The position numbers were made by a program, and so were the translations under genes. From Nostoc minutum NIES-26 (GTDB lineage: Bacteria > Cyanobacteriota > Cyanobacteriia > Cyanobacteriales > Nostocaceae): a DNA stretch of 32,000 nucleotides. Of the stretch, positions 9,460-32,000 are shown in pieces (position 1 is the stretch's first letter; each line of letters opens with the position of its first letter). The DNA is taken from assembly GCA_003326215.1 (NCBI GenBank), contig LXQD01000205.1, positions 65,301 to 97,300 on the forward strand. Reading direction: 5' to 3'. The notes below the pieces were generated by a model that worked only from the letters and a program-made list of their open reading frames with translations, ran no database searches and was not told where the DNA came from.

Positions 9460-9714
9460 ATGAGTCTTAACAGTTTACAACTACAAATCTTCACTTTCGT
9501 TGCTAAAATCACAGGACACGATGTAGAAGACTTAGAACCAGATATGTATCTGGAAAGCGATATGGGATTAGACTCTATCAAAATGGTAGAGCTACTCAAC
9601 ACCTTTATTCAAATGGTTCCACAGGAAAAACAAGCTGAATTTTTGCAAGTTGTACCCATGGAACAACTAATGCAACTCCAAACTTTAGCAGAAGTTCTAC
9701 AACTCGGTCAAACT
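9460..9714 (+). other. N-terminal carrier protein domain (probable ACP of the split PKS module 2)
   Basis: Motif SDMGLDSIKMVELLNTF, with the Ser codon tct at 9574-9576. The domain starts at residue 1, leaving no room for an N-terminal docking domain. Confidence 0.8.
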
Positions 9715-14897: not shown

Positions 14898-15851
14898 ATG
14901 CGTAATTACTTTTCCACTTTTGTTGTATCAACGACTGTTGCAGTCTCGGCTGCTTTACCAGTTCAAGCTGCGACTTTTGACTTCAGTAAATTACAATTGA
15001 TTTCCACACGACCAATTGAATCTAATTCCGAATTATCTTTTTTTGGTGATGTGAATGCTAACGAAGGTCAAACAGCATTCATTAATCCCGATCCCAATGC
15101 TCCAGACAACGGTCATGCAGAAATTAGTCCCAATTCAGGAAGCTTTGCACCTTACTATGCAACTGGTCGGAATGCCAGTCCTGAAAATAGTGGTGCTACT
15201 AGAGCAGCCAGTTTAAAAGGGGTGACAAATTTCCCTAACTTTTTCAATTATCTGACTAAAAATTCAATCGCTCTCAATAGTATTGGTTTTAGTTACGGGC
15301 AAAAAAGCGATCGCGATTTTCGAGAAACTTGGAATTTAGGAGAAGATAAACTCGGTCAAGATTGGCTAGCTAGTTCTACTTCAACAATTGAAGAGAGAAT
15401 TTATCGAGCTAATCCCGATGTTGTAGAAACCTATTTCTCTTTAGGTAATACTAGAATACTCAATTTAGGATATACCCCTTTATACGCTACTTTTGAGTAT
15501 GGAGAGACACCAGCTAGGGAAGATAATATTGACTTATTCTATTCAGAACCAGTCAAAGTTACAAAAGTAGGTGGATTAAATTCATTAGAAGCAGGTCTAG
15601 CAGATGCATTTTTACAAGACGTTGCCAATAACGGAGGTAGCATTCAGTTAGTTGGAGAAGATGTCGCAGCTCAAGATGGTTCTTTTACCTCTGGCAATGG
15701 CTTCAGTATTTTTAACTTCTCATTACCGTTAACTGTACGTGCAGTCTCCGTTCCCGAACCTTCTGCAATTTTAGGATTTTTGATGCTTGCCGGTTCAGGT
15801 ATATTCTCTTTCTCAAAACAACAGAAAAAAGCACCAAAAACCTTGAATTAA
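14898..15851 (+). CDS. Secreted PEP-CTERM sorting-domain protein
   Basis: The N-terminal signal peptide is MRNYFSTFVVSTTVAVSAALPVQA/ATF. The C-terminus VPEPSAILGFLMLAGSGIFSFSKQQKK shows PEP, a TM helix and a basic tail. Confidence 0.75.
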   Translation: MRNYFSTFVVSTTVAVSAALPVQAATFDFSKLQLISTRPIESNSELSFFGDVNANEGQTAFINPDPNAPDNGHAEISPNSGSFAPYYATGRNASPENSGATRAASLKGVTNFPNFFNYLTKNSIALNSIGFSYGQKSDRDFRETWNLGEDKLGQDWLASSTSTIEERIYRANPDVVETYFSLGNTRILNLGYTPLYATFEYGETPAREDNIDLFYSEPVKVTKVGGLNSLEAGLADAFLQDVANNGGSIQLVGEDVAAQDGSFTSGNGFSIFNFSLPLTVRAVSVPEPSAILGFLMLAGSGIFSFSKQQKKAPKTLN

Positions 15852-15895
15852 TAGCAATTCTCTAAATCCGACAACAGATTTAAATCTGATTGTCC

Positions 15896-15950
15896 TAATT
15901 ACGAATTACGTAGACGCGCTCTGCATGGCTTCCCGAAGGGTATTACGAAT
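15896..15950. repeat. Family B repeat inserted in ATTACGA heptamers
   Basis: The sequence is taattacgaattacGTAGACGCGCTCTGCATGGCTTCCCGAAGGGTAttacgaatt. It supplies the spurious ATG at 15925. Confidence 0.75.
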
Positions 15951-15963
15951 TGGAGAAAGAGAG

Positions 15964-17046
15964 ATGGCTATTTTTGGAAAAATGGGTATGTATTTTCATA
16001 CCCTGGTTACAGCTACGACGATCGCAATTGGAGCAATGGTAGCACCACCATCCACAGCAGCAACTTTCAAAGTGACTGTGGAAAATGTAGCTCCAGAAAG
16101 TGGGATTAACTTAGCTCATTTTTGGATAGGCTTTCATGATGGTAGTTTTGATGCTTTCAATGCAGGTGAACCTGCTTCAGGAGCAATCAAACTCATGGCT
16201 GAGGAACAAGTAATCGGTCTTGGTGCTAGAATTCTGGATGATTTCAATATTCCCACTCCACAACTTACTGATATAGTCATTTCCACCTTTGCAGCGGGTA
16301 CTGACTATGCTTTCATCTCCCCAGAACTTCAGTCTGCGTTAGAAGCAGGTAGCGATCGCGCCACCATATCTGCAATCCTGGATTCGATTTTTAATTCCGA
16401 CATCGACGTGAAGGATTTACCTCCCTCACCAGGAACCATTGCCGCTGAGTTCGCTAACAGTCAAGCCGGAAAAAATGGTGGCACACAAGATATCTTGTTC
16501 TATCCCACCCTATCGCCAATTCCCATAGTCCAGCCTCCTGGTACAACTGCTTCCAGACTTATTGAACTGGACGATCCTCAAAAAAATCGTTTCTTCAGTT
16601 ACGCTACAATGCTTTTTCCTAGTAACGATGCCTTCATTGGGAATGACAATCCAAAAGCGATTCAAGTTTTTGACGAACAAGGAAACTTCATAGGAGCAGA
16701 TTTCACAGTTTTTGGGAATCAAGCATGGGATGCAGGTACTGAAGTCAACGACGAGAAAATCTTTTCTATGCCTGCAAACATAGATGAAAACGGCACAATT
16801 CAACCCCATCCTGGTTTAAAAGCGCCTGGTGAAGGAGGAATTGTAGATACTCAATTGGATGGGTTAAGCTTTGCCAACGCTGATTTTTCCAAGCCAGGTT
16901 ATCAAATAGCACACATCACAATTACCAAGGTAGACGAACCAAGCACTAATCATGGTTTACTTGTTCTCGGCGGCTTGTTGTCGATAGTTACAATAATGAG
17001 CAAATTAAAGCAAGGAAGAAACAATTTTTCGTCAAGATTTAACTGA
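15964..17046 (+). CDS. Secreted spondin_N-like protein with a variant PEP-CTERM anchor
   Basis: The ORF is open from 15925, but its first 13 codons are repeat-derived. ATG 15964 follows ggagaaagagag. After the signal-like segment comes ATFKVTVENVAPESGINLAHFWIGFHDGSFDAFNAGEPAS, resembling cyanobacterial spondin_N-type proteins as I recall them. The C-terminus VDEPSTNHGLLVLGGLLSIVTIMSKLKQGR matches the PEP-CTERM layout. Confidence 0.6.
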   Translation: MAIFGKMGMYFHTLVTATTIAIGAMVAPPSTAATFKVTVENVAPESGINLAHFWIGFHDGSFDAFNAGEPASGAIKLMAEEQVIGLGARILDDFNIPTPQLTDIVISTFAAGTDYAFISPELQSALEAGSDRATISAILDSIFNSDIDVKDLPPSPGTIAAEFANSQAGKNGGTQDILFYPTLSPIPIVQPPGTTASRLIELDDPQKNRFFSYATMLFPSNDAFIGNDNPKAIQVFDEQGNFIGADFTVFGNQAWDAGTEVNDEKIFSMPANIDENGTIQPHPGLKAPGEGGIVDTQLDGLSFANADFSKPGYQIAHITITKVDEPSTNHGLLVLGGLLSIVTIMSKLKQGRNNFSSRFN

Positions 17047-17158
17047 AAAGTTAGCCGAAAAACGGAAAATTAAGATTTGTATTGTTTGAAAAAACCCTGC
17101 ATTACAGGTAGGTTTCTTTGCTCATACTCGACCAACCTTAAATTGCCCAATTATACAG

Positions 17159-17233
17159 GTTTGTAGTGAAGGATTTAACCCTCTTTCAGTAATACCTTCA
17201 GGGCTGAATCTGCCTTACTACAAACCCCCCCCC
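17159..17233. repeat. 68-nt imperfect long palindrome followed by a C9 tract
   Basis: The outer arms ggtttgtagt (17159-17168) and actacaaacc (17217-17226) are perfect, and the inner arms are partly complementary. A run of 9 C lies at 17225-17233. Confidence 0.6.
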
Positions 17234-17554
17234 AACTTACCTTTTCAGAACAACTCGCTTCAATAATTATCACAATCAGCTTAATCATTAATTTCACGTT
17301 CATGCATACGTGAATTATCAAGTTTCTTGTTCGTGTGACTAACACTTATGAAATACAGCTAGATAAAACTCTTATCTAGTACTCATTACACTCAATATTT
17401 GTGAGAAATCATCTGTTTCGTAAATAACTCACATGTACTGGTGAAGCCTTTAAATATAGCTAATTTCTAGCTTTGACCGAATTCTTTATTGGTCATCTCA
17501 CCACTGTTTAAGTCAAATTAATTCAACTACATCATTTCAACAGGTTCAAAAATT

Positions 17555-17995
17555 ATGTCTACATCAATTCCAACACCAATTATGCCCGTATCCACTCAAC
17601 TAGGAACACCTGAAATTATGTCTTTAGCAACTCCAACAGCAATTATACCTGTACCGACTCAAATAGAAACTCCTGAAATTCAAAAAGGTTTTAATCTTTT
17701 AGGATTAAAAGTCTCAGATATTGAATTGAACGAGCTGAAACATGGCAATACCGTTTCATTAGAAAGCAGACGACTAAGTGAAATAGGTTCAGTATTGATA
17801 CTTGCAGAAGCTCTTTCATCATTGCATTCAGTTAAAAACATTACCTTCAAAGATTTACCAAAAGTTGTTACAGAATCCACAAATTGTTCTGGCATTCCCG
17901 TCCATCGATGGAATGATGATATACTTGGTAAGTGTTACCTGCTGCTCACTTTAGTAGATGGTCAACCTGCATTCAAGATATCATCTCAAAAGTAG
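17555..17995 (+). CDS. Hypothetical protein with an N-terminal tandem 21-aa Pro/Thr-rich duplication
   Basis: A 146-aa ORF with an ATG start. No recognisable family motifs and no signal peptide. It contains two 63-nt repeats at 17558-17683. Confidence 0.45.
   Translation: MSTSIPTPIMPVSTQLGTPEIMSLATPTAIIPVPTQIETPEIQKGFNLLGLKVSDIELNELKHGNTVSLESRRLSEIGSVLILAEALSSLHSVKNITFKDLPKVVTESTNCSGIPVHRWNDDILGKCYLLLTLVDGQPAFKISSQK
17558..17683 (+). repeat. 2 x 63-nt tandem duplication inside the hypothetical CDS
   Basis: 17558-17620 encodes STSIPTPIMPVSTQLGTPEIM and 17621-17683 encodes SLATPTAIIPVPTQIETPEIQ. Confidence 0.85.
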
Positions 17996-18034
17996 CGTAA
18001 ATCCAGACCCTTCAAGCATATTATCTGGGTAAAT

Positions 18035-18172
18035 ATAGCAATCCTAAATCACTTGTGAAAATTTCTAATTCTTGTCTCTCAGTGTCCTCTGCTTCTCTGT
18101 GGTAGCCTACGGCAAGCCGCTATTGCGTCTACGTTAAAAAGATAACTTTCACAGTTGAAATAGGATTGCTAT
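18035..18172. mobile_element. 138-bp MITE-like element with 26-bp imperfect terminal inverted repeats, carrying a family B unit
   Basis: The left TIR is atagcaatcctaaatcacttgtgaaa (18035-18060). The right TIR, reverse-complemented, is atagcaatcctatttcaactgtgaaa (18147-18172), matching at 22 of 26 positions. The interior contains gtagcctacggcaagccgctattgcgtctacg. No ORF and no clear target-site duplication were seen. Confidence 0.55.
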
Positions 18173-18246
18173 CTCACAAGCATAATTCTTTGTATTACGC
18201 TAATTCCATCAATTAACTACACATTTTAGGTGAAAGGAATCTTACC

Positions 18247-18849
18247 GTGACCACATCAAAAGCTTATAAAGATTCGTCATTTTCACATGACGACCTGTTT
18301 CTATCGAAACAAATTATTATCAATCCTGTGACAGGCGATCGCATGACTATTCTTTGCTCCACCGCCGATAGTAATGGAGAATATTTTAAAGTTCAATTTG
18401 ACCTACCACCAGGAGCAAAAGGCAGTCCCTTGCATTACCACGGTTCTATGCATGAAACCTTTGAGGTTTTAAGAGGTTCGCTCAATATGGAACTTTGTGA
18501 AAAAGGCAACAGAAAAACATTGCGAACTGGAGATAAAGTATACGTTTACCCTGGTATGTATCATAGTTTCTGGAATGAATCTAATGACTGGGTAACATTC
18601 ATTAGTGAAATACGTCCTGCTGGGAATTTTGAGCAATTTTTAAAAGCTTGGTACGGTTTAGCTGGAGACAGAAAAGTAAACAAAGATGGAGTACCTACCA
18701 ATTTATTGCAACTAGCCTTAATTGTTCAGAAATCCGACACCATAGTTGTCGGACAACCGCCGTTTCTGCAAAAAATAATACTCAACATACTGACTAAAAT
18801 TGCTCGTATTTTAAAAGTAGAGCGAACCCTAGTCAAATATTGGCGGTAA
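18247..18849 (+). CDS. Cupin-fold protein
   Basis: Cupin motifs GSPLHYHGSMHETFEVLRG and YPGMYHSFWN are present. The GTG start is preceded by aggtgaaagga, and the start position is uncertain. Confidence 0.6.
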   Translation: MTTSKAYKDSSFSHDDLFLSKQIIINPVTGDRMTILCSTADSNGEYFKVQFDLPPGAKGSPLHYHGSMHETFEVLRGSLNMELCEKGNRKTLRTGDKVYVYPGMYHSFWNESNDWVTFISEIRPAGNFEQFLKAWYGLAGDRKVNKDGVPTNLLQLALIVQKSDTIVVGQPPFLQKIILNILTKIARILKVERTLVKYWR

Positions 18850-18868
18850 CATCAGCATCAACAAAAGT

Positions 18869-18916
18869 AATTCGTAGTTAAAGTAATTTTAATTACGAAT
18901 TACGAACTACGAATTA
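18869..18916. repeat. Inverted heptamer (AATTCGT / ACGAATT) arrays forming a 12-bp perfect stem
   Basis: taattcgtagtt (18869-18880) is complementary to aactacgaatta (18905-18916). It lies between the cupin stop and the membrane-protein start. Confidence 0.7.
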
Positions 18917-18930
18917 TCTAGGAGAAAACC

Positions 18931-19680
18931 ATGAAAGACCGCGTACAACTTTTGAGAATAACAGGTGCTGTGCTGACTTTTCTATCTATTTCCATCAACA
19001 TACCCTACATTTTGCTGATTCAAAATTTTGAGTATGATGATATTCTCCGCGCACCCACTAACTACATCCTCACTAAATTTCACGAAGGCGGTTCCGAACT
19101 CATCTTCACTTGGTTTCTTTTTGCTTTGTTAGCATTACTGTTTATTCCAGCCAGTACATTTCTACAAAAAGTACTCACAAGAGAAGATACTGTCTATTTG
19201 TCCGCAGCTACCTTAATGGGTGTGCTTTCTGGTTTGTTGCAGTCTATTGGACTCATGCGCTGGGTATTTGTCGTTCCTGTCTTAGCCGATTTGTATGTTC
19301 AACCAACAACCGATAGAGCAACTCGTTCTGCTGTTGCTGTTGTCTTTCAAGCAGTTCATCAATATGGTGGTGTTGTTATCGGCGAACATTTGGGACAAAC
19401 TTTACTCGCCTTATGGACATTGGGAGTTGGTGTGGCGATGCTTGGCTCACCCTTCTTTAAATCTTGGATTGCTTGGTTTGGTCTTTTTACAGTACCTCTT
19501 TTAATTCTCGGACAAACTGAATTACTTGCAACAGTTATTCCATCTATGCCAGTGTGGAAAGTCACTCCTATTGGTTTCATGCTTTGGGAAGTTTGGCTTT
19601 TAATAACAGGAGTCAGTCTACTTTTGACAGCAAATAAATATAAAAGTACCGACAAAACTCAACAACTTTCCAGAATTTGA
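18931..19680 (+). CDS. Multi-pass integral membrane protein, family not assignable by eye
   Basis: The ATG start is preceded by taggagaaaacc. There are about 6-7 hydrophobic helices, for example ITGAVLTFLSISINIPYILLI and LIFTWFLFALLALLFIPA. Confidence 0.7.
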   Translation: MKDRVQLLRITGAVLTFLSISINIPYILLIQNFEYDDILRAPTNYILTKFHEGGSELIFTWFLFALLALLFIPASTFLQKVLTREDTVYLSAATLMGVLSGLLQSIGLMRWVFVVPVLADLYVQPTTDRATRSAVAVVFQAVHQYGGVVIGEHLGQTLLALWTLGVGVAMLGSPFFKSWIAWFGLFTVPLLILGQTELLATVIPSMPVWKVTPIGFMLWEVWLLITGVSLLLTANKYKSTDKTQQLSRI

Positions 19681-19707
19681 AAATCAACAGTTCTCAGTCT
19701 TGAAGAA

Positions 19708-19887
19708 GAATTCAGAAGTTAGAATTTAGGAGTCAGACTAAAAAAAGTGGAAGATTTAGAGCCGCTACTAATAGAAAACCACTAAATAGAAGATTGACTA
19801 GTGGTCTTAAACCAAGCAATTCATCTACCATTCGTACAAAATTCAGAATTCAATTCTGACTCCTCACTCCTGAATTCTGTTGTGATA
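19708..19887. repeat. Heptamer-type repeat blocks in inverted orientation flanking ~125 bp
   Basis: The left block is gaattcagaagttagaatttaggagtcaga (19708-19737). The right block tctgactcctcactcctgaattc (19865-19887) reads gaattcaggagtgaggagtcaga when reverse-complemented. A palindrome tcagaattcaattctga lies at 19853-19869. Confidence 0.5.
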
Positions 19888-19908
19888 AATTACTAATTAA
19901 ATATAATC

Positions 19909-20664
19909 ATGATTGACACAAATCGTTGGATTGTCCGCTATCAATCCCATCCTAAAGTTCGTTTGCGCTTATTTTGCTTTCCTTATGCTGGAGGTAGTAC
20001 CTCTACATATCGTAAATGGTCGGAGTTATTACCATCAGATATTGAAGTTTGTCCTGTACAACTTCCTGGACGGGAAAACAGATCGATGGAAGCTCCTTTC
20101 ACTCATGTTACACCGCTGGTTGAGAGTTTATTACCAGTTTTAAACTCATATCTAGACCTTCCTTATGCTTTTTTTGGCCACAGTATGGGAGCCTTAATTA
20201 GTTTTGAATTAGCCCGTCACATTAGAAAACAACGCTACCCCGAACCTCAACATTTATTTGTTTCTAGCCGTCGCTCTCCTCATCTTCCTTCTTCAGAGCC
20301 TCCTATTCATAAACTACCTGAAACCGCTTTTTGGGAGCAACTTCGCCTCTATGATGGTGTACCCGATACACTATTACAAAGTTCTCAAATAGCCAAGTTG
20401 TTTCTACCACTGTTGCGAGCAGACTTTGCCATTCATGAAACATATAAATACACCCCAGGCACTCAATTTAATTACCCAATAACAGCCTTTGGCGGGTTAC
20501 ACGATCGCAAAGTCGGCTCTGAAGAAATTATGGCTTGGCGAGAGTTAACTAATAGTGATTTCTACCTTCACTTATTTCCTGGCAATCACTTATTTTTACG
20601 TAAGGAGTACCAGCAAATTTTATCAGTTATAGCTCGAAATCTGAGTCAAAAAATTGCAGCTTAA
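19909..20664 (+). CDS. Type II (editing) thioesterase
   Basis: Motifs LFCFPYAGGS, the nucleophile elbow GHSMGALISFELA, GGLHDRKV (Asp) and FPGNHLFL (His). At 251 aa, its length is typical for this family. Confidence 0.9.
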   Translation: MIDTNRWIVRYQSHPKVRLRLFCFPYAGGSTSTYRKWSELLPSDIEVCPVQLPGRENRSMEAPFTHVTPLVESLLPVLNSYLDLPYAFFGHSMGALISFELARHIRKQRYPEPQHLFVSSRRSPHLPSSEPPIHKLPETAFWEQLRLYDGVPDTLLQSSQIAKLFLPLLRADFAIHETYKYTPGTQFNYPITAFGGLHDRKVGSEEIMAWRELTNSDFYLHLFPGNHLFLRKEYQQILSVIARNLSQKIAA

Positions 20665-20707: not shown

Positions 20708-20735
20708 GGTGCGTTATGCTTCTGGCTAACGCACC
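20708..20735 (+). terminator. 9-bp perfect hairpin after the thioesterase gene (dispersed-repeat type)
   Basis: The arms are ggtgcgtta (20708-20716) and taacgcacc (20727-20735), with a 10-nt loop. It sits 44 nt after the stop and has no U-tract. Confidence 0.35.
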
Positions 20736-20792
20736 ATGACAGATTAGTTCAAAATGGTACATTACATCAGACTAATCACCAGCTTAAACATC

Positions 20793-21893
20793 ATGGAAAT
20801 TAACAAATTGCTGAATACTAACATCGAATCTTCAATGATTTTAATGACACCAATGCAGATCAAAGAGCAATTGCCTTTAACCAAAGTTGCTACAGAAACT
20901 GTATTGCAAGGTAGACAAGCTATACAAAATATACTTGACGGCAAAGATTCCCGAAAATTTATTATTGTTGGCCCTTGCTCTATCCATGATTTCGATGCTG
21001 CTTTAGAATATGCAGAAAAATTGAAAATTATTGCCGAACAGGTAAAAGACAAACTGTTGATTGTGATGAGAGTTTACTTTGAAAAACCTAGAACTACAAT
21101 TGGATGGAAAGGATTAATTAATGACCCCGACTTAGATGGCTCATTTAACATTCAAAAAGGATTATTTACGGCACGCAATTTGTTACTCAAAATTGCTGAA
21201 TTAAAATTACCTGCTGCTACAGAAGCTTTAGATCCTGTAACACCTCAATATTTCTCCGATTTAATTTCTTGGGCTGCAATTGGAGCGCGCACAATTGAAT
21301 CTCAAACCCATCGGGAAATGGCAAGCGGATTATCCATGCCAATAGGTTTTAAAAATGGTACTGATGGTAATATTCAAGTTGCTCTTGATGCTATTCAATC
21401 AGCTAATAAACTCCACCATTTTTTAGGAATTGACCAAAGAGGTCAAGTTTGTACATTTAAAGCAAAAGGAAATAACTACGGTCATATTATTTTACGTGGG
21501 GGAGATGGTAAACCGAATTTTGATGCACCTACTGTAGCTTGGGTAGAGAAGAAGCTAGAGGGACTTAAGCTACCTCAAAGAATCATCATTGACTGTAGTC
21601 ATGGAAATTCTTATAAAGATCATAAGCTACAGGCCACTGTCTTTAATAACGTTCTCCAGCAAATTGCAGATAGGAATAAATCAATTGTTGGCATGATGCT
21701 TGAGTCCAACTTGTATGAAGGAAATCAGAAGATACCTACAGATTTAAAAAAATTGAAGTATGGCGTATCTGTTACAGACAAATGTATTAGTTGGGAAGAA
21801 ACAGAAGAAATAATTCTATCTGCACATCACAAGTTAAGCAGAATGGTTGTATCTGGAACTCCTCTGCGAAACTTATTGACAACTGTAAGATAG
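20793..21893 (+). CDS. 3-deoxy-D-arabino-heptulosonate-7-phosphate (DAHP) synthase, type I-alpha (AroG/F/H-like)
   Basis: The protein is collinear with E. coli AroG as I recall it: IIVGPCSIHD, MRVYFEKPRTTIGWKGLINDP, IGARTIESQTHREMASGLSMPIGFKNGTDG, IILRGG and MLESNLYEGNQ. The ORF is open from 20754. ATG 20793 or ATG 20835 fits the AroG N-terminus better. Confidence 0.88.
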   Translation: MEINKLLNTNIESSMILMTPMQIKEQLPLTKVATETVLQGRQAIQNILDGKDSRKFIIVGPCSIHDFDAALEYAEKLKIIAEQVKDKLLIVMRVYFEKPRTTIGWKGLINDPDLDGSFNIQKGLFTARNLLLKIAELKLPAATEALDPVTPQYFSDLISWAAIGARTIESQTHREMASGLSMPIGFKNGTDGNIQVALDAIQSANKLHHFLGIDQRGQVCTFKAKGNNYGHIILRGGDGKPNFDAPTVAWVEKKLEGLKLPQRIIIDCSHGNSYKDHKLQATVFNNVLQQIADRNKSIVGMMLESNLYEGNQKIPTDLKKLKYGVSVTDKCISWEETEEIILSAHHKLSRMVVSGTPLRNLLTTVR

Positions 21894-22467: not shown

Positions 22468-22476
22468 GTTTTAACC

Positions 22477-23733: not shown

Positions 23734-23736
23734 TAA

Positions 23737-23785
23737 AGGCAGAAGGCAGAGGGCAGGAGGCAGAAGGTAGAAGTCAGAAGTCAAA
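23737..23785. repeat. STRR array, 7 x AGGCAGA-like heptamers
   Basis: The units are aggcaga aggcaga gggcagg aggcaga aggtaga agtcaga agtcaaa. The array starts immediately after the FabF-like stop. Confidence 0.85.
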
Positions 23786-23849
23786 AGTTATTATTTTTCT
23801 CCCCTATATCCCTCATCTCCCTCACAAGAATAACTAGCAAATAAAGCAG

Positions 23850-24860: not shown

Positions 24861-24877
24861 TTCGTAATTCGTAATTC
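24851..24877. repeat. STRR array, about 3.5 x AATTCGT
   Basis: The array taattcgtaattcgtaattcgtaattc overlaps the FabH-like stop codon at 24858-24860. Confidence 0.85.
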
Positions 24878-24973
24878 AGATTCTTTTTTGATGATTGGTT
24901 GTGAAGTGTAGGGAGAATTTTTATTTTGTCTCCCTTGTAATTGGTTTTTTTACGAGTTTAAAGTAACCCGCGT

Positions 24974-26698
24974 ATGAATACACTATCTCTACAACAGAAC
25001 ATCACGCGTTCTTGGCAAGTGCCTTTTACTGGCAATTCAAATTCAGACAATTTAAATTCAATTGTAACTGTAGGCGATCGCAATCTGACTATAGACGAGG
25101 TGGTGAATGTAGCCCGTCATGGCACACAGGTGCGTTTAACTGATAATGTAGATATCCTAAAAGGCGTGCAAGCATCGTGTGACTACATCGATCGTGCAGT
25201 TGAAACAGGCCAACCAATATACGGAGTTACATCTGGCTTTGGTGGAATGGCACATGTTGTCATTTCCCGCGAACAAGCAGCCGAACTTCAAACTAACTTA
25301 ATTTGGTTTCTAAAATCTGGAGCGGGTGCGAGATTGCCGTTGGCAGATGTCCGCGCCGCCATGCTTTTGCGTGCCAATTCACACTTATATGGTGCATCGG
25401 GTATACGACTCGAATTGATTCAACGAATTGAAACTTTTTTAAATGCTGGTGTGACACCGTATGTCTATGAGTTTGGCTCTATTGGTGCTAGTGGCGATTT
25501 AGTACCTTTGTCTTATATTACTGGGGCGCTCATAGGTTTAGATCCCAGCTTTACAGTTGACTTCGACGGTAGAGAAATGGATGCTCCTACAGCGCTGTGT
25601 CGGCTGGGTTTGCAGCCTTTGCAACTGCAACCGAAAGAAGGCTTGGCAATGATGAACGGCACTTCTGTGATGACAGCGATCGCAGGTAATTGCGTGTATG
25701 ATGCTAGAGTCTTACTTGCACTAGCAATGGGCGTACATGCCTTAGCCATCCAAGGTTTATACGGGACAAATCAATCGTTCCACCCGTTTATCCATAAACA
25801 CAAACCCCATCCCGGTCAACTGTGGGCAGCAGACCAGATGTTTTCCCTGCTTAAAGGTTCATACTTAGTCCGTGAAGAATCAGATGGCAAGCATGAATAT
25901 CGCGGTCAAGAACTAATCCAAGATCGTTATTCTCTGCGCTGCCTTCCACAGTATATGGGGCCAATTGTTGACGGAATATCGGAGATTGCCGAGCAAATCG
26001 AGCTAGAAATGAACTCAGTCACCGATAATCCATTGATTGATGCCAACAAACAAGCTAGTTATCATGGTGGCAATTTTCTCGGACAGTATGTAGGCGTGAC
26101 AATGGATCGCTTGCGCTACTATATAGGGCTATTAGCTAAACACATCGACGTACAGATCGCGCTGCTTGTTTCACCAGAGTTTAGCAACGGACTCCCACCT
26201 TCTTTAGTTGGCAATCTAGAGCGTAAAGTCAACATGGGACTTAAAGGTTTGCAAATTAGTGGAAACTCGATCATGCCACTATTGACCTTCTATGGAAATT
26301 CTTTAGCCGATCGCTTTCCTACCCATGCCGAACAATTTAATCAAAACATTAACAGCCAAGGATATGTTTCAGCAAATCTGACACGTCGTTCTGTAGACAT
26401 ATTTCAATATTATATGGCGATCGCGCTGATGTTTGGAGTCCAAGCCGCTGACTTGCGTACATATAAAATGACTGGTCACTACGATGCACGTACATGCCTT
26501 TCTACCGGAACTTTAGAGTTGTATGCGGCAGTTCGTCAAGTAGTTGGACATCAGCCAACATCTCTGCGTCCATACATTTGGAACGATAACGAACAGTCCT
26601 TGGACGAGCATATCGCCTTGATTTCAGCTGATATCGCTGCTGGCGGTCTAATTGTGCAAGCAGTTAGCGATATTTTGTCAAGCTTGAAGTCAATATAA
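24974..26698 (+). CDS. pal: Phenylalanine ammonia-lyase (MIO-dependent, cyanobacterial short PAL type)
   Basis: The MIO triad ASG sits in GSIGASGDLVPLSYITG (25487-25495). The Phe-selectivity pair F-L sits in NLIWFLKSG (25307-12). The protein is near-collinear over its whole length with the Nostoc punctiforme and Anabaena variabilis PAL sequences as I remember them. Confidence 0.92.
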   Translation: MNTLSLQQNITRSWQVPFTGNSNSDNLNSIVTVGDRNLTIDEVVNVARHGTQVRLTDNVDILKGVQASCDYIDRAVETGQPIYGVTSGFGGMAHVVISREQAAELQTNLIWFLKSGAGARLPLADVRAAMLLRANSHLYGASGIRLELIQRIETFLNAGVTPYVYEFGSIGASGDLVPLSYITGALIGLDPSFTVDFDGREMDAPTALCRLGLQPLQLQPKEGLAMMNGTSVMTAIAGNCVYDARVLLALAMGVHALAIQGLYGTNQSFHPFIHKHKPHPGQLWAADQMFSLLKGSYLVREESDGKHEYRGQELIQDRYSLRCLPQYMGPIVDGISEIAEQIELEMNSVTDNPLIDANKQASYHGGNFLGQYVGVTMDRLRYYIGLLAKHIDVQIALLVSPEFSNGLPPSLVGNLERKVNMGLKGLQISGNSIMPLLTFYGNSLADRFPTHAEQFNQNINSQGYVSANLTRRSVDIFQYYMAIALMFGVQAADLRTYKMTGHYDARTCLSTGTLELYAAVRQVVGHQPTSLRPYIWNDNEQSLDEHIALISADIAAGGLIVQAVSDILSSLKSI

Positions 26699-26744
26699 TT
26701 CGTAATTTCATGCAGACAATCTCGGCTAGAAAGGAGATTTAATA

Positions 26745-28295
26745 ATGAATATTGCACAAAATGTAGAACTTGGTTGTTATCTTTTTCCTAATAAACCAGC
26801 GCTCATCTTTGAAGAAGAATCTTTCACATACAAAGACTTGAACGAAAGAGCAAATCGTGTTGCTAACGGTCTACGCAGTTTGGGAATTAGGCGTGGAGAG
26901 CGTGTAGCTTTGTTTTTGCCAAACATTCCAGAATTTGTCTTTTCTTATCTTGGCATTCTGAAAATTGGTGCGATTGCTGTCTCAGTTAACGTCATGCTCA
27001 AAAGTGATGAAGTAAGCTATATTCTCAATGATTGTGCTGCCAAAGTAATCATTACAACAGAGTCTCAAAGTGAGTATGTGCAAGAGGCAGATTTAATCGC
27101 CTTACAACACATTTTAATTACAGAAGGCACAGCTAAAAAAGGTATTAGTCTAACAGAACTAATGGCAAAAGCTTCTCCTGAAGCACACGCAGTGGAAATG
27201 GCTCGCCACGCTCCTGCAAGTATCCTCTACACATCAGGCACTACAGGCTTTCCCAAAGGAGCTACACTTTCTCATGGCAATGTTCTTTTCAACAGCTATA
27301 GTGCTAACTGTTGTTATCGTATTCAAAAGAGCGATCGCTTACTACTTTACTTACCTTTATTCCATTGTTTTGGTCAAAATGCAATTCTCAACGCTAGTCT
27401 ATCTGCTTGTGCAACCCTGATATTACAACGCCGATTTGACTTAGAACAAGTCTTGAAAACCATCACTGTACATCAAGTGACAATGTTATTTGGAGTACCG
27501 ACAGTATTCATTAAACTGCTGAATATGGATACATCTGACTGTAACCTGAAAAATATTCGCTATTACTTTTCAGCAGCAGCACCCATGCCTTCTGAAGTAG
27601 CACAGCGTTGGTATCAAAAGTATGGAATTGTAATTCATGAAGGGTATGGTTTAACAGAAACATCGCCATTTGCTGCTTATAATCACAACTTGAAATACAA
27701 ACTAGGTAGCGTTGGTACTTCCATTGCAAATGTAGAAATAAAGATTGTTGATGGTAATGGTTATGAAGTACAAGCAGGCGAGTTAGGTGAAATAGTTATT
27801 AAAGGGCCAAACGTCATGCTTGGTTATTGGAATCGTCCTTTTGAAACAGCAGAGGTTATTAAAAATGGTTGGTTCCATACTGGTGATATTGGTCGGATGG
27901 ATGAAGAAGGTTTTTTCTACATCGTTGACCGCTTAAAAGACATGATTATTTTCTCTGGATTTAAAGTTTACCCAACAGAAGTTGAAAATATTATTTATCA
28001 ACATCCAGCGGTTGCTGAAGTAGCTGTATATGGAGTTGACGATCGCCTCAAAGGCGAGATTGTCAAAGCAAATATTGTCCTTAAAACTGGTCATCCAATA
28101 ACAGAACAACAAATCATTGACTTTTGTTATCAAAAGATGGCAGCTTACAAAATTCCCCGCGTAATTAAGTTTGTAGATTCAATTCCCAAAAACTCAACTG
28201 GTAAAGTATTGAAGCGAGTTTTACGTCAGGAATCAACAGTAGTCAGTAGTAGAGACGCGATTAATCGCGTCTGTACAGGAAGTAGTTGTCAGTAG
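26745..28295 (+). CDS. Aryl/acyl-CoA ligase (4-coumarate/cinnamate-CoA ligase-like)
   Basis: Motifs LYTSGTTGFPKGATLSHGN, GYGLTETS, HTGDIGRMDEEGFFYIVDRLKDMIIFSGFKVYPTEVE and PKNSTGKVLKR. The C-terminal ~19 aa (VVSSRDAINRVCTGSSCQ) are encoded by a dispersed repeat. Confidence 0.88.
   Translation: MNIAQNVELGCYLFPNKPALIFEEESFTYKDLNERANRVANGLRSLGIRRGERVALFLPNIPEFVFSYLGILKIGAIAVSVNVMLKSDEVSYILNDCAAKVIITTESQSEYVQEADLIALQHILITEGTAKKGISLTELMAKASPEAHAVEMARHAPASILYTSGTTGFPKGATLSHGNVLFNSYSANCCYRIQKSDRLLLYLPLFHCFGQNAILNASLSACATLILQRRFDLEQVLKTITVHQVTMLFGVPTVFIKLLNMDTSDCNLKNIRYYFSAAAPMPSEVAQRWYQKYGIVIHEGYGLTETSPFAAYNHNLKYKLGSVGTSIANVEIKIVDGNGYEVQAGELGEIVIKGPNVMLGYWNRPFETAEVIKNGWFHTGDIGRMDEEGFFYIVDRLKDMIIFSGFKVYPTEVENIIYQHPAVAEVAVYGVDDRLKGEIVKANIVLKTGHPITEQQIIDFCYQKMAAYKIPRVIKFVDSIPKNSTGKVLKRVLRQESTVVSSRDAINRVCTGSSCQ
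28237..28278 (+). repeat. Family A repeat (CAGTAGT x2 plus GTAGAGACGCGATTAATCGCGTCTGTACAG) forming the 3' end of the CoA-ligase CDS
   Basis: The sequence is cagtagtcagtagtagagacgcgattaatcgcgtctgtacag. The core agacgcgattaatcgcgtct is a perfect 20-bp palindrome. Confidence 0.85.
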
Positions 28296-30094
28296 TATTT
28301 TCCCCTCAGCTCTGTTACCCCCAATCCCTAAAGATCGTGAATTTAAAAAGTATTACCAAAACCTTAAATCCATTGGAGCAGTTGCAAAAAAGTACTGCTA
28401 TCCAACCCAATCTACTTTCACTTGACCAGACAAGCGATTTAACTGTTGCAGCAGCTTTAGTCAAGACACTGGAAGATTTAGGAGTCCGCTATGCTTTTGG
28501 CCTGTTCGGAGGCGGAATCACACCCCTTGTTGCTAGCTTAGAGCAAAGTTCAATCCAAGTACTGCAATTTCGTCATGAAGCCGGAGCCGCATTTGCAGCT
28601 ATTGAGTCTTACTTTGCTAGCGGACACCCAGTTGTAGTATTCAGCACAACTGGCCCAGGTATTACTAACGCTTTGACAGGATTGTTTGCTGCTCGTTGGG
28701 AAGGAGCAAAAATCATTTTCCTCTCGCCTTGCACCTCTGCAACACAACGCGGACGCTGGGCTTTTCAAGAAACCAGTCTGTACACCATGTCTAATACAGG
28801 CATTTTTACTTCAGGAACATTATTTCATTACGCCACCACTGTTGAATGTAGCTCGGAACTGCCAAAAATTGCTCGTAAGCTCTTGGCAGGTATGGGAAAA
28901 CCAGGGGGCTTTGTAGCTCATATCAGTATCCCTAGAGCAATTCAGACAAGTTCGCTGATGACACCATTACCTCGCGTGAATTTCTCTCAATCTTCGGTAA
29001 CTGCTGGGGAAGATGCTATCTGCAAGTCTTTACAACTGCTGTGTGAGGGGCCATTTGCCATTTGGGTTGGTTTCGGTGCTAGAGGTGCAGCCGCGGAAAT
29101 CCGCCAACTTGCTGAGAGAACCAAAGCTGCGGTGATGTCATCCTCTCGTGGTAAGGGGATATTTCCTGAAGATCATCCTCAGTTTGTGGGTGTTACAGGC
29201 TTCGGAGGACATAGCTCTGTTGTGAAGTATATGCAAGAGCATCGTCCTTTACGCGTACTGGTTTTGGGAACTCGGCTAGGTGAATTTACCTCGTTTTGGA
29301 GTCCGGTTATGGTTCCTTCACGCGGGTTTATACACGTAGATATTGACCCGGAAGTGCCAGGAACTGCTTATCCAGCAGCGGAGACATTTGCCGTCCACTC
29401 CGATATTGGAGCTTACGTTAAAGCATTGCTTAAGTATTTTCCACAAACTTATGGTTTGTCACCAATATTACCTTTACCTCGTGGCGATCGCCAATTAATC
29501 AAGCCCTATGGAGAAGGTCTAGTACGCCCTGAATTATTGATGGATGCAATTCAAAGGGTAATTGTTGAAAAAAGCGATGCAGTAGTAATGACCGAGGCAG
29601 GTAACTCCTTTGCTTGGGGAACCCACACGCTCAGATTTACTACACCAGGTCGTTACCGGGTAAGTACTGGGTTTGGCTCGATGGGGCACGCTGGCACGGG
29701 TATTTTAGGTGCTGCACTGGCGCGAAATCGTAAGGCGATCGCCATTCTTGGTGATGGTGCTATGCTCATGAACAGCGAAATTACTACCGCTGTCAAACAC
29801 AAAATTCCTGCCGTCTGGATTGTACTCAATGATGCACGTTACAACATGTGCGATCAAGGCATGAATATGGAAGGATTCTATGGTGTAGATGCAGAGATAT
29901 CCACCGCAGATTTCGTGATGATTGCCCGTGGTATGGGAGCTGATGGCATTCGTGTAGACAGCGAGTTTGATGTCGAAGCAGCCTTAGAAACAGCTCTAGC
30001 CTCTACTGTACCCTTTGTTGTTGACGTAGCGATCGACCCGACACGACCAGCACCAATTGGCACTCGAATTAACAGTTTAATCAGTAGTCAGTAG
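28286..30094 (+). CDS. Thiamine-diphosphate-dependent enzyme (acetolactate-synthase/carboligase family)
   Basis: An N-terminal Pyr-domain segment LVKTLEDLGVRYAFGLFGG and the catalytic Glu context FRHEAGAAFAA are present. The ThDP motif is GDGAMLMNSEITTAVKHKIPAVWIVLND, with GDG at 29750-29758. There is no in-frame ATG near the 5' end. The start could be TTG 28286 (overlapping the upstream stop), GTG 28337, or TTG 28373/28382. Confidence 0.85.
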   Translation: MSVVFSPQLCYPQSLKIVNLKSITKTLNPLEQLQKSTAIQPNLLSLDQTSDLTVAAALVKTLEDLGVRYAFGLFGGGITPLVASLEQSSIQVLQFRHEAGAAFAAIESYFASGHPVVVFSTTGPGITNALTGLFAARWEGAKIIFLSPCTSATQRGRWAFQETSLYTMSNTGIFTSGTLFHYATTVECSSELPKIARKLLAGMGKPGGFVAHISIPRAIQTSSLMTPLPRVNFSQSSVTAGEDAICKSLQLLCEGPFAIWVGFGARGAAAEIRQLAERTKAAVMSSSRGKGIFPEDHPQFVGVTGFGGHSSVVKYMQEHRPLRVLVLGTRLGEFTSFWSPVMVPSRGFIHVDIDPEVPGTAYPAAETFAVHSDIGAYVKALLKYFPQTYGLSPILPLPRGDRQLIKPYGEGLVRPELLMDAIQRVIVEKSDAVVMTEAGNSFAWGTHTLRFTTPGRYRVSTGFGSMGHAGTGILGAALARNRKAIAILGDGAMLMNSEITTAVKHKIPAVWIVLNDARYNMCDQGMNMEGFYGVDAEISTADFVMIARGMGADGIRVDSEFDVEAALETALASTVPFVVDVAIDPTRPAPIGTRINSLISSQ

Positions 30095-30252
30095 TAGAGA
30101 CGCGACGCCAGTCGCTACAACGGGGGGAACCCCCCTTCGGGTGACGCTCGCAGGCTCGCTAACGCTACGCTAACACAGTTGCCTGCGGAGGGAAACCCTC
30201 CCGCAGCACTGATTCACCGCAACGCGCTGGCTCATTAATCGCGTCTGTACAG
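30082..30252 (+). mobile_element. Family A repeat split by a nested 129-bp insertion (MITE-in-repeat)
   Basis: The left half cagtagtcagtagtagagacgcga lies at 30082-30105 and the right half ttaatcgcgtctgtacag at 30235-30252. Together they reconstitute the intact 28237-28278 copy exactly. The insert at 30106-30234 has its own hairpins, ggggggaacccccc and ctgcggagggaaaccctcccgcag. Confidence 0.75.
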
Positions 30253-30341
30253 TTGTTATCAGATTAATTGCGTCTGTTGTCATTAGTTATTCTCCGTGTC
30301 CTCGCGTCCCCTCATTACCCCACAACCAAAGGAAATTTCCC

Positions 30342-31472
30342 ATGATCTATCCACCCGTAGGTATTCGCTCAATTGCAATTAATTTTCCTAGTGTCATTCG
30401 CACTAATGATTATTGGCGCAAAAATTACCCTGATTTAGTTGCAATGGCAGAGGAAAAAAGTCTATCAAAGGTGTTTTCGCCTGCTGATTCTACCCCCAGC
30501 AATCAGTTTGAACAGGTAATGACACCGTATCTCAAAGACCCATTCCGTGGTACTATTGAGCGCCGAGTTCTCGGTTCGGATGAGTCATCGCTAACACTAG
30601 AGTATCAAGCAGCCAAGAATGCGATCGCAGCGGCAAATCTATCTCCAGAAGAAATCGATTTGATGATTGTTGCTTCACTCTGGCCGGAAAATATTCTACC
30701 TGGCAATGCCGCCTTTCTTGCTGGTCAACTCGGTCTGCGCGGTGCTGCTTGGAATTTGGATTCAACCTGTTCTAATGCTATGGTTGCTCTGCAAAACGCC
30801 ACTGCACTGGTGCGAACTGGAGAGTATCGCAATGTGCTGGTTGTGGTTTCTTGCACTTACTCTCGCTTTACCGATGAAAACGATACCCTCTCGTGGTTTT
30901 TCGGTGACGGTGCTGGAGCTTTTGTGGTTGCGCCGCTAAAACCAAGCCAGGGAATTCTTGGCAGCAAAATTGTGAATACATCTGCAACTTGTGGCACCTT
31001 CTATAATGAATTAACTATGGATGCTGAGGGCAAGCCAAGGATGTTAATTAGAGCAGCAAAAAATACTAACAGAGTACTGAGTGAGACTGCTGTGGATTAC
31101 CTACGCGAGTGCTGCTTGGGTGCTGTTGCTGCTGCTGGTGTTACCCTAGAGCAAATTCAATTTTTTGCTTTTAATACACCCACTGCCTGGTATTCGCATC
31201 TCTGCACGCAGGCGTTAGGCATCGAACCAGAGCGGACGATTAACCTTTACCCCTACTATGCAAACATTGGGCCAATGCTACCCATCGCCAATCTTTACCA
31301 CGGCGCACAATTAGGCAAGATTCACGAAAACGACTTAGTTCTCGTTTACACTGTTGGTTCTGTATCTAATGCTGCTGCAACTGTAATGCGCTGGGGCGAT
31401 GTTGCTCTAAGTACAGCACCCGCAACCTCAGCTAACCTGACAGATGTGTTGCCGAAACTGGTGCTAGTCTAA
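30342..31472 (+). CDS. KAS III (FabH)-like acyltransferase, candidate furanolide-synthase-type enzyme
   Basis: The fold is FabH-like, with the Cys in NLDSTCSNAMVAL (codon 30768-30770) and FFGDGAGAF. The HQAN His position reads AFNTP, and the NYGNTSAAS region reads YYANIGPML. Confidence 0.85.
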   Translation: MIYPPVGIRSIAINFPSVIRTNDYWRKNYPDLVAMAEEKSLSKVFSPADSTPSNQFEQVMTPYLKDPFRGTIERRVLGSDESSLTLEYQAAKNAIAAANLSPEEIDLMIVASLWPENILPGNAAFLAGQLGLRGAAWNLDSTCSNAMVALQNATALVRTGEYRNVLVVVSCTYSRFTDENDTLSWFFGDGAGAFVVAPLKPSQGILGSKIVNTSATCGTFYNELTMDAEGKPRMLIRAAKNTNRVLSETAVDYLRECCLGAVAAAGVTLEQIQFFAFNTPTAWYSHLCTQALGIEPERTINLYPYYANIGPMLPIANLYHGAQLGKIHENDLVLVYTVGSVSNAAATVMRWGDVALSTAPATSANLTDVLPKLVLV

Positions 31473-31569
31473 AATAATACCTTTTAAGAAACTCTAAGTA
31501 ATAAATTATTTAGCTTGAAGCAGTTGACTGTTAACTGCGTCTGGCTTTTCCCCATAATCCCAAGAAACA

Positions 31570-31602
31570 AGATACCCGATTTGTCTAAAAAGTCGGGTAT
31601 CT
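31570..31602 (+). terminator. 10-bp perfect hairpin about 100 nt downstream of the last gene
   Basis: The arms are agatacccga and tcgggtatct, with a 13-nt loop. Confidence 0.35.
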
Positions 31603-31661
31603 GTGCTTTCAATTCTGACAAATTAAATAGAACTACTATACTGGTTTTTATGCTCGAATCG

Positions 31662-31708
31662 TGACAAAAGTCATAGGTTGCTTTATGACTTTTGTCAGAA
31701 TATTTTTT
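31662..31708 (+). terminator. 14-bp perfect hairpin followed by a T-tract (rho-independent terminator-like)
   Basis: The arms are tgacaaaagtcata (31662-31675) and tatgacttttgtca (31685-31698), with loop ggttgcttt. The hairpin is followed by gaatattttttc. Confidence 0.5.
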
Positions 31709-32000
31709 CATAAAAAGATGTTTTAATAACTTCAGGGATTAACAAAATGAACTAAAAAAGTTATATAGTATACATTTTGTATTTAAGGGAAAGAAACAAT
31801 CACAATTAATTTCTTACTTATTATGGTAAGAAAAACTGAGTAACTCATAGCTAAAAATCAACATATTCTTCCCCTCCCTATTTTTGGTAAGGTTGAAACC
31901 TTTGTGATACTGTTGTTTGACTTGTTCGATTTTACCAAAAGTCAGTCAGATAAAAAAAGTTTTTGCCAAAAAGCTAAGATTTTTGTCATATAAAGAGAAC

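Follow-up and report, generated by a model that had tools for sequence, protein, structure and literature searches.

The 32,000 nucleotides of Nostoc minutum NIES-26 analysed here (the window) raise the question of which product the gene cassette at positions 24974–31472 makes, and whether it acts alone or together with the FAAL-PKS-NRPS line that precedes it. ORF listing and profile searches find four co-directional plus-strand ORFs in this interval, each with a strong family match, in agreement with the four consecutive genes of the original prediction; they are clustered and colinear, with intergenic gaps of 46, 41 and 247 bp (Table 1). Judged by sequence, the cassette is a close copy of the published cyanobacterial gene set for benzyl-substituted butenolide lactones (furanolides). 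We put at roughly 85% the probability that the four genes are a functional orthologue of the ‘signature’ furanolide genes CybB/C/E/F and MacB/C/E/F, of the nostoclide N (ncl) type, with the route and product proposed below. The cassette itself is ordinary, and the neighbouring lipid-serine assembly line is conserved.

Table 1. Features of the window; numbers prefixed L denote compared loci, and scores are given in bits against the model cut-off.
Feature	Coordinates	Strand	Evidence or remark
Type I PKS, N-terminus cut by window start	11..9259	+	Pfam and motif positions
NRPS, ACP-C-PCP-A-C	9460..14517	+	Pfam and motifs
Six conserved genes, NRPS to DAHP synthase	14898..20664	+	Same order in L087, L088/L093 and L094
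unkA	14898..15851	+
unkB	15925..17046	+	Spondin domain
unkC	17555..17995	+	Also directly upstream of ACP in L001 and L010
Cupin	18247..18849	+
DUF4386	18931..19680	+
Type II thioesterase	19909..20664	+
AroF/G/H-type DAHP synthase	20754..21893	+	PF00793; TIGR00034 483 vs 173
Discrete acyl carrier protein (ACP), 81 aa	22222..22467	+	TIGR00517 76.9 vs 70.45
FabF-type beta-ketoacyl-ACP synthase II, 418 aa	22477..23733	+	TIGR03150 624 vs 494
Canonical FabH (KAS III), 336 aa	23850..24860	+	TIGR00747 380 vs 292
Phenylalanine ammonia-lyase (PAL; CybB/NclD homologue), 574 aa	24974..26698	+	Pfam PF00221 Lyase_aromatic, E 1.9e-148
Cinnamate/aryl-acid CoA ligase (CybC homologue), 516 aa	26745..28295	+	AMP-binding and AMP-binding_C
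ThDP-dependent acyloin synthase (CybE homologue, ScyA-related), 585 aa	28337..30094	+	TPP_enzyme N, M and C domains
Furanolide synthase (CybF homologue), KAS III-like, 376 aa	30342..31472	+	ACP_syn_III domains
Terminator-like hairpin	31662..31697	+	16-bp stem then T-run; 190 bp past synthase stop; consensus match only

The lyase carries the MIO triad A172-S173-G174 together with the selectivity pair F112-L113, as had been predicted for a Phe-type MIO ammonia-lyase, and the same F-L pair is present in the N. punctiforme PAL (NpPAL, PDB 2NYF), against which the window enzyme scores 1097 bits. Its identity is 87% to the PAL of an N. punctiforme-type chromosome (L001), which is the same as PDB 2NYF in all but 5 of 569 residues (~99% identical), and 71% to CybB of the cyanobacterin locus (L011). 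The window and L001 enzymes both read WFLKSG at this motif, whereas CybB reads WYHKVG and has Y-H in place of the F-L pair. This difference separates a known Phe user (NpPAL) from a known Tyr user (CybB), and it divides the 60 synthase-linked lyases compared into 14 with F-L and 46 with Y-H.

The second protein is the aryl-CoA ligase anticipated at this position, with 511 bits against NCBIfam PRK06187 (cut-off 476) and identities of 82% to the L001 ligase and 71% to CybC over 498 residues. The final ~10 codons of the ligase gene pass through a dispersed 18-bp palindrome at 28254. The longest ORF for the ThDP enzyme starts at TTG 28286 and runs into the ligase gene, but homologues align from GTG 28337 (MNLKSITKT...), 41 bp after the ligase gene. 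GTG 28337 is therefore most likely the start, which would leave the two genes without overlap. In an alignment with homologues, the ThDP enzyme contains the motifs RHE, GDGAMLMN and VLND, so the GDG...ND signature noted originally stands. The protein passes the NCBIfam NF035927 ‘ScyA-related’ model (1013 bits, cut-off 1000) and is 84% identical to its L001 counterpart and 67% to CybE. A score of 911 bits against the ScyA model NF035923 could also point to a scytonemin-like pathway. This value lies under the ScyA cut-off of 1020, while the ‘ScyA-related’ model passes, no other scytonemin-type genes are found among the window ORFs, and the enzyme's partner is a CybF-type synthase, as it is in the cyanobacterin (cyb) cluster; the probability of such a pathway is negligible.

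The fourth protein is 86% identical to the L001 synthase and 72% to CybF. In a profile alignment with the window FabH and E. coli FabH, C143, N278 and N308 pair with C112, H244 and N274 of FabH. Cys and Asn are therefore retained, and only the His is exchanged, for Asn. The FabH fold and the Cys had been described correctly in the original prediction, but the Cys is not the only catalytic residue kept. Across 22 members of the synthase family, the Tolypothrix and Scytonema sequences among them, C143, N278 and N308 do not vary. The synthase thus resembles FabH in its thiolase/KAS III fold domains and in keeping both the Asn and the Cys nucleophile, but differs from it in the Asn that replaces the catalytic His and in a score far below the fabH cut-off (TIGR00747, 110 bits versus 292), and a decarboxylating KAS III was rejected on these two grounds. 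CybF, a characterised relative, performs an O-acylation and a cyclisation, not a condensation with malonyl-ACP.

Homologues of the cassette proteins carry annotations such as ‘3-oxoacyl-ACP synthase III’ and ‘long-chain-fatty-acid-CoA ligase’, which would suit a set of housekeeping or unrelated enzymes (AHAS, FabH, a fatty-acid CoA ligase and histidine ammonia-lyase) brought together by chance. Such a reading is already refuted by the fabH score together with those against AHAS (TIGR00118, 207 versus 538) and hutH (350 versus 539). The AHAS score, far under its cut-off, rules out an acetohydroxyacid synthase large subunit (IlvB/IlvG/IlvI), the housekeeping identity weighed in the original prediction. 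In addition, the catalytic His of FabH is replaced in the synthase, an adjacent gene encodes a genuine FabH, and 52 of 80 species loci (the best 80 of 351 synthase relatives in 185,579 species genomes) repeat the order lyase-ligase-ThDP enzyme-synthase, colinear on one strand. A chance grouping consequently has next to no probability.

The cassette is therefore best read as a Phe- and cinnamoyl-based furanolide cassette, as first proposed, a reading supported by the match to ncl (82–89% identity), the match to CybB/C/E/F (67–72%), the AHAS score and the downstream flanks of relatives. In the route that we suggest, the PAL would turn L-Phe into cinnamate, as its 87% identity to the characterised NpPAL implies, and the ligase, from its 71% identity to CybC, would convert this to cinnamoyl-CoA. 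The ScyA-related ThDP enzyme would decarboxylate an arylpyruvate and couple it to a second 2-oxo acid, yielding an alpha-hydroxy-beta-keto acid (acyloin). This second substrate is probably 2-oxoisovalerate, by analogy with the nostoclides and cyanobacterin; the sequence itself does not predict the substrates. The synthase, with its Cys/Asn/Asn set, would then O-acylate the acyloin with cinnamoyl-CoA, and ring closure could follow the Morita-Baylis-Hillman / 1,4-hydride-shift cascade reported for CybF. The predicted product is an unhalogenated 3-benzyl-4-alkyl-5-benzylidene butenolide; cinnamoyl-CoA would supply its alpha-benzyl group, and the two oxo acids its beta and gamma substituents.

The lack of tailoring rests on several searches. 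Pfam scans of all window ORFs of at least 100 aa detect no halogenase or O-methyltransferase, and none of the cyb O-methyltransferase, halogenase, Rieske, NmrA-like or tyrosinase proteins has a tblastn match in the window, in line with the first reading of the DNA. That reading had made the unhalogenated product depend on what lies beyond position 32000. The DNA of Dendronalium sp. ChiSLP03b, 98.3% identical in nucleotides over the cassette part, and that of Halotia likewise have no halogenase or methyltransferase downstream of the cassette. Because such genes are absent from the window and from these two downstream flanks, an unhalogenated, cinnamoyl-derived furanolide would be expected. The hairpin past the synthase is the longest-stemmed terminator-like site in 14400–32000 and, by its sequence, likely marks the end of the transcription unit.

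Upstream of the cassette lies a probable supply gene. This DAHP synthase gene, which is annotated in homologues with a start ~39 bp downstream (20793), likewise precedes the cassette in L003, L005/L094, L008, L009 and L093, and probably boosts the supply of aromatic precursors; the maculalactone (mac) cluster also contains one (PMC13288894). Directly 5′ of the lyase, an ACP-FabF-FabH trio occurs in the window (22222–24860) as well as in L001, L003, L005/L094, L008, L009, L010 and L093. The window FabH has an intact Cys/His/Asn triad (motifs AACSGF, MHQAN and YGNTSAAS) and is distinct from the furanolide synthase. Among the best 80 species loci, the trio is present only in the four ncl-clade loci L007–L010, the other 76 being without it. 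It is a conserved ncl-clade feature, with identities of 76–99% for the ACP beside the cassette, 82–100% for FabF and 88–97% for FabH; the ncl-type cassette thus travels with a private ACP-FabF-FabH set. The published furanolide scheme has no role for the trio, and the pathway may therefore do something extra.

One such extra role would be that the PAL and ligase mainly feed a cinnamoyl-CoA starter to FabH-FabF-ACP, which would build from it an omega-phenyl fatty acid or polyketide; this product, in place of cinnamoyl-CoA, would be passed to the synthase or the FAAL. The position of the trio immediately 5′ of the PAL, its restriction to the ncl clade among the best 80 loci and its 76–100% identity across genera are consistent with this. 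However, nostoclides N1/N2 are plain furanolides that were also made with CybE/CybF from cinnamate-type acids (PMC12395478), FabH and FabF score above the housekeeping equivalog cut-offs and have ordinary motifs, and the Desmonostoc locus (L006) has the ligase, ThDP enzyme and synthase without KS, FabH or PAL. We give this starter role very little credence.

A supercluster of 16 co-directional genes closes with the furanolide cassette at its 3′ end; it runs, in the order of Table 1, from the FAAL-PKS through the Ser-type NRPS, unkA, unkB, unkC, cupin, DUF4386, thioesterase, DAHP synthase and trio to the four cassette genes, PAL first and synthase last. The PKS has the architecture FAAL-ACP-KS-AT-KR-ACP-KS-linker with no second AT, and its orthologues measure 3128–3129 aa. 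The NRPS specificity code DIWHVSLIDK, derived by hand, is read as Ser-like, and identity to its orthologues is 95% in Dendronalium, 88% in Halotia and 74% in A. cylindrica. The gap between thioesterase and DAHP synthase is 89–128 bp, and the whole layout is kept in Dendronalium, Halotia and Atlanticothrix. From the short gaps and the conserved PKS-NRPS synteny, this line may be functionally coupled with the cassette. By analogy with the pks1 region of N. punctiforme, the FAAL-PKS-NRPS(Ser) line and its accessory genes most likely give a separate lipid-like product.

Alternatively, the assembly line and the furanolide cassette could build a single molecule, for example if the terminal C domain of the NRPS off-loads a lipo-seryl chain onto a furanolide or acyloin hydroxyl. 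Such a hybrid would fit the co-directional arrangement of all 16 genes with short gaps, the layout kept in the three other genera, and an NRPS that ends in a C domain and contains no cis thioesterase. Yet it appears quite improbable, given that the ncl-type cassette of N. punctiforme adjoins another PKS (nvl) and that two distinct products were isolated from that organism (PMC9324945), that more distant PKS-NRPS relatives (L091, L092) have no furanolide genes within 10 kb, that furanolide cassettes stand alone in most of the best 80 species loci, and that macBCEF by itself suffices for finished furanolides in E. coli (PMC13288894). The proposal that the 16-gene unit, found in at least three genera, is one pathway to a covalent lipo-seryl-furanolide hybrid, or to a variant in which the FabH/FabF/ACP trio elongates the acyl part first, is unlikely; if true, either product would represent an undescribed furanolide subclass.

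Two separate pathways remain the preferred reading. The cyb cluster of Tolypothrix sp. PCC 9009 and Scytonema hofmanni UTEX 2349 (D’Agostino et al. 2022, as summarised in PMC13288894 and PMC12395478), for which these summaries report in vitro reconstitution of the CybB/C/E/F chemistry, has the same B, C, E, F core order as the window (71, 71, 67 and 72% identity) and a synthase with the same Cys/Asn/Asn positions (sequences P0009 and P0015). It differs in its Tyr lyase and coumaroyl-CoA, in a DAHP synthase of another type with an FXD domain, in the absence of the ACP-FabF-FabH trio, and in two O-methyltransferases, an NmrA-like reductase, a Rieske oxygenase, a flavin halogenase and a tyrosinase without counterparts in the window. 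The mac cluster of Nodularia sp. NIES-3585 combines the BCEF logic with a DAHP synthase for precursor supply (PMC13288894), as in the window, but has a chorismate mutase, a tyrosinase and tribenzyl products; here the likeness and the differences are drawn from the published description, not from sequence.

The closest relative is the ncl subcluster in the pks1 region of Nostoc punctiforme PCC 73102, a locus assigned to nostoclides N1/N2 in which RS10365 is the PAL NclD (Krumbholz et al. 2022, PMC9324945); the link to nostoclides was drawn there from regulator overexpression, transcription and homology, not from gene knockouts. L001, which carries this subcluster, shares with the window the order ACP-FabF-FabH-PAL-ligase-ThDP enzyme-synthase on one strand (76–89% protein identity), the F-L pair, the absence of halogenase and methyltransferase, and unkC upstream, and in both cases the cassette terminates a FAAL-primed PKS region on its 3′ side. 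In pks1, nvl and ncl are adjacent and account for two separate, co-regulated mediators (PMC9324945). Chaining of a furanolide cassette to a FAAL-primed PKS, a feature that the original prediction set apart from the described furanolide clusters, is thus published, whereas the FAAL-PKS-NRPS partner is indeed different: the window has a FAAL-PKS and Ser-type NRPS alongside the cupin, DUF4386 and type II thioesterase genes, and N. punctiforme has the tetronate-like nvl PKS with FAAL-ACAD, an FkbH-like enzyme, a tetronate FabH-like enzyme and BVMOs (PMC9324945). The ACAD, FkbH and BVMO domains, taken from that description, are not found in the window, nor is any AraC-type regulator gene, the class to which AraC_PKS1 of pks1 belongs. 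The window also places a DAHP synthase between its two parts, and none was seen in L001. The host differs too, being a Nostocacean of Dendronalium-like kind. Cyanobacterin, a furanolide, is a photosystem II inhibitor, and the N. punctiforme furanolides include cell-density-linked mediators that turn on other gene clusters. The locus described here leaves the picture of furanolide biosynthesis unchanged and is of use in genome mining and in picking clusters to express: it adds a further close ncl orthologue, in another genus, and shows that, besides its pairing with nvl in N. punctiforme, an ncl-type cassette ends a second, different FAAL-primed assembly line.

The window holds 15 ORFs that are 100 aa or longer, without exception on the + strand, and a short ACP gene in addition to these. 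The four cassette genes that the original prediction had placed at 24974-31472 are real and strongly assigned by family matches. The observation is confirmed, and its interpretation as a furanolide cassette is supported. Rfam and tRNA scans over the window gave no match, and a promoter scan returned 44 sites compared with 40.4 +/- 6.7 in shuffled sequence; since this count is no better than that of shuffled sequence, no operon boundaries were drawn from it.

Features of the window, with positions, strand and assignment
Feature	Position	Strand	Assignment
PKS	11-9259	+	FAAL(cut)-ACP-KS-AT-KR-ACP-KS-linker
NRPS	9460-14517	+	ACP-C-PCP-A-C
unkA, unkB	14898-17046		between NRPS and unkC
unkC	17555-17995		146 aa, no family match
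ACP gene	22222-22467	+	81 aa
Aromatic amino-acid lyase (PAL)	24974-26698	+	PF00221, E 1.9e-148
AMP-binding ligase	26745-28295	+	family match
Palindrome GACGCGATTAATCGCGTC	28254-28271		perfect, 18 bp, 3' end of ligase ORF
ThDP enzyme, three-domain	28286/28337-30094	+	NCBIfam 'ScyA-related TPP-binding enzyme'
KAS III-like protein (furanolide synthase)	30342-31472	+	family match
Hairpin	31662-31697		16-bp stem and T-run

The gene order ACP, FabF-like KS, FabH, PAL, ligase, ThDP enzyme and synthase is exactly that of the ncl-type locus on the N. punctiforme-type JGI chromosome (L001), with identities to the window proteins of 76, 82, 89, 87, 82, 84 and 86%, respectively. The PAL of this chromosome differs at 5 of 569 positions from the N. 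punctiforme PAL of PDB 2NYF, which the window PAL matches with 1097 bits. The ncl subcluster of N. punctiforme pks1 has been assigned to nostoclides N1/N2, with the PAL RS10365 corresponding to NclD (Krumbholz et al., PMC9324945). In the cyanobacterin (cyb) locus of Tolypothrix PCC 9009 / UTEX 2349 (L011), CybB, CybC, CybE and CybF are 71, 71, 67 and 72% identical to the window proteins. According to second-hand accounts in the literature (PMC13288894, PMC12395478 and, for the mechanism, also PMC8777810), the Cyb lyase and ligase generate an aryl-acryloyl-CoA, the ThDP enzyme joins two 2-oxo acids into an acyloin and the synthase CybF first O-acylates, then performs a Morita-Baylis-Hillman step and a 1,4-hydride shift; the lactone carbonyl and alpha-benzyl group derive from the acryloyl-CoA, the beta and gamma substituents from the oxo acids.

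The ASG triad of the MIO group comprises residues 172-174 of the window lyase, and the selectivity pair is F112-L113. The motif WFLKSG is the same in the N. punctiforme PAL, whereas the Tyr-using CybB carries WYHKVG at this motif. Among 60 lyases linked to furanolide synthases (loci L001-L085), the pair is Y-H in 46 and F-L in 14, and we suggest from these sequences that it may offer a rule for telling Tyr-derived from Phe-derived alpha-benzyl groups in genome mining. Following the MIO triad, most Y-H lyases have GDLTPL, and the F-L lyases have GDLVPL, with GDLAPL in one.

The ThDP protein, which contains the motifs RHE, GDGAMLMN and VLND, passes the model for ScyA-related TPP-binding enzymes (1013 bits, cut-off 1000). 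An identity as AHAS was rejected (equivalog score 207, cut-off 538), as was an identity as ScyA (911, cut-off 1020), and curated cut-offs also rejected FabH and HutH memberships for the cassette proteins. Because the protein falls below the AHAS equivalog cut-off, the grouping with IlvB/IlvG that the original prediction had named as speaking against itself is not what was found. Homologues of the ThDP enzyme start at the position of GTG 28337 (MNLKSITKT...), so the apparent 10-bp overlap with the ligase results from choosing the longest ORF. At the palindrome GACGCGATTAATCGCGTC, the ligase is ~10 codons longer than in Halotia and Atlanticothrix. The same 18-mer is present in one copy each in five other loci (L003, L009, L072, L087 and L094) and is therefore a dispersed short repeat.

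When a profile of 22 members of the synthase family is aligned with the window's own FabH and with E. coli FabH, C143 corresponds to the catalytic Cys, N308 to the Asn and N278 to the position of the His. All three residues are invariant across the 22 members. The claim that this protein keeps only the Cys was thus slightly off, in that the Cys is indeed kept, but so is the Asn, and the His alone is replaced.

A scan with one genome per species yielded 351 synthase relatives. Of the 80 best loci among these, 52 have lyase, ligase, ThDP enzyme and synthase colinear on one strand and 15 have the ThDP-synthase pair alone, the remainder being incomplete or interrupted by contig ends. Within these 80 loci, the synthase is 83-88% identical to that of the window in four, after which identity drops directly to 72% or less, a gap that places the window in a tight ncl clade, to which the ACP-FabF-FabH trio is confined in the same set. 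Both the FabF (624, cut-off 494) and the FabH (380, cut-off 292, triad intact) of the trio exceed their cut-offs. Within the ncl clade, Desmonostoc muscorum CCALA 125 (L006, 953-8346) has unkC, DAHP synthase, ACP, ligase, ThDP enzyme and synthase, and lacks PAL, KS and FabH, the PAL match being a 4% remnant; PNPOx, hydrolase, ADH, glyoxalase and MatE genes lie 3' of its synthase.

The absence of a halogenase and an O-methyltransferase, as the original prediction had stated, holds for the window, where no homologue of the cyb O-methyltransferases, halogenase, Rieske oxygenase, NmrA-like reductase or tyrosinase was found, and also for the genes listed downstream in two relatives. An exact-sequence search with the window's synthase matched no record, and the window is therefore outside the indexed assemblies. 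The nearest genome, Dendronalium sp. ChiSLP03b (98.3% identical over window positions 20704-31887, with the region on two contigs), has beyond the synthase an opposite-strand GH3 gene, DUF1294, toxin-antitoxin genes and transposases, and Halotia branconii has an HTH gene on the opposite strand. Together with the hairpin, these downstream genes indicate that the cassette ends at the synthase gene, and its product is therefore expected to be unhalogenated. Some 5 kb downstream of the synthase, beyond a large NB-ARC/WD40 gene, the opposite strand of Atlanticothrix CENA357 encodes a tyrosinase (L005, 16296-17594). By analogy, a link of this tyrosinase to the furanolide locus is possible, because the cyb and maculalactone (mac) clusters also have tyrosinases.

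At the 5' end of the supercluster, the 16 co-directional genes of which the furanolide cassette forms the 3' end, the second KS of the PKS has a KS-AT linker region behind it but no AT (one Acyl_transf_1 match only in the protein, and no GHSxG), and the ACP that serves this KS is apparently the domain at the N-terminus of the NRPS. The domain order of the NRPS is unusual, with a carrier ahead of the adenylation domain and a terminal C domain in place of a thioesterase. Its adenylation-domain code, derived by hand without a prediction tool, is DIWHVSLIDK, which we take to resemble serine codes. Full-length relatives with 40-63% identity occur in cyanobacteria, Paenibacillus, Bacillus cytotoxicus and Methylocaldum, many with an extra KR, and we know of no product of an NRPS of this kind.

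The genes 3' of the NRPS encode, in order, two probable secreted proteins, unkC, a cupin, DUF4386, a type II thioesterase and a DAHP synthase of the AroF/G/H type. The secreted appearance of unkA and unkB is odd for a biosynthetic cluster: by eye, the N-terminus of unkA resembles a signal peptide, unkB contains a spondin domain (NF038123, 102 bits), and both genes are found in synteny in Halotia, Atlanticothrix and Dendronalium. Proteins 76-100% identical to unkC are encoded beside the ncl-type cassette in the N. punctiforme-type chromosome, Nostoc C117 and Desmonostoc, and one with 50% identity beside a distant PKS-NRPS relative without furanolide genes (L091).

The complete 16-gene order is kept in three other genomes, namely Halotia branconii (complete genome; L088 and L093), Atlanticothrix silvestris CENA357 (L094) and, over two contigs, Dendronalium ChiSLP03b (L087 and L003). 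Anabaena cylindrica (L089/L090) has a decayed supercluster with PKS, NRPS, unkA, unkC, thioesterase and DAHP-synthase fragments, ACP, KS and transposases; at 17648-24483 the thioesterase is truncated (137 aa) and the DAHP-synthase fragment measures 114 aa, with ACP and KS intact, and DDE transposases and ParB/AAA genes come next. The locus examined contains neither FabH nor any of the four furanolide genes, and no furanolide genes lie within 10 kb of the more distant PKS-NRPS relatives (55-63% identity). N. punctiforme carries this cassette 3' of another FAAL-primed PKS, nvl, and there two distinct compounds have been isolated (PMC9324945). Given these relatives without furanolide genes and the two nvl/ncl products, the simplest reading is that of two adjacent subclusters, probably co-regulated, with the furanolide cassette as a portable module, and we consider a true hybrid, or a product extended by the trio, improbable.

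The chaining of the cassette to a PKS, which the original prediction did not recall for described furanolide clusters, thus has a published precedent, but the FAAL-PKS-Ser-NRPS partner is new to the literature searched. A review of FAAL enzymes (PMC11837247) contains no counterpart of the neighboring PKS-NRPS, and neither this partner nor the conserved 16-gene layout is described in the literature searched; both are of moderate interest for genome mining. The cassette itself is a further example of a furanolide kind that is already known and recently characterized.
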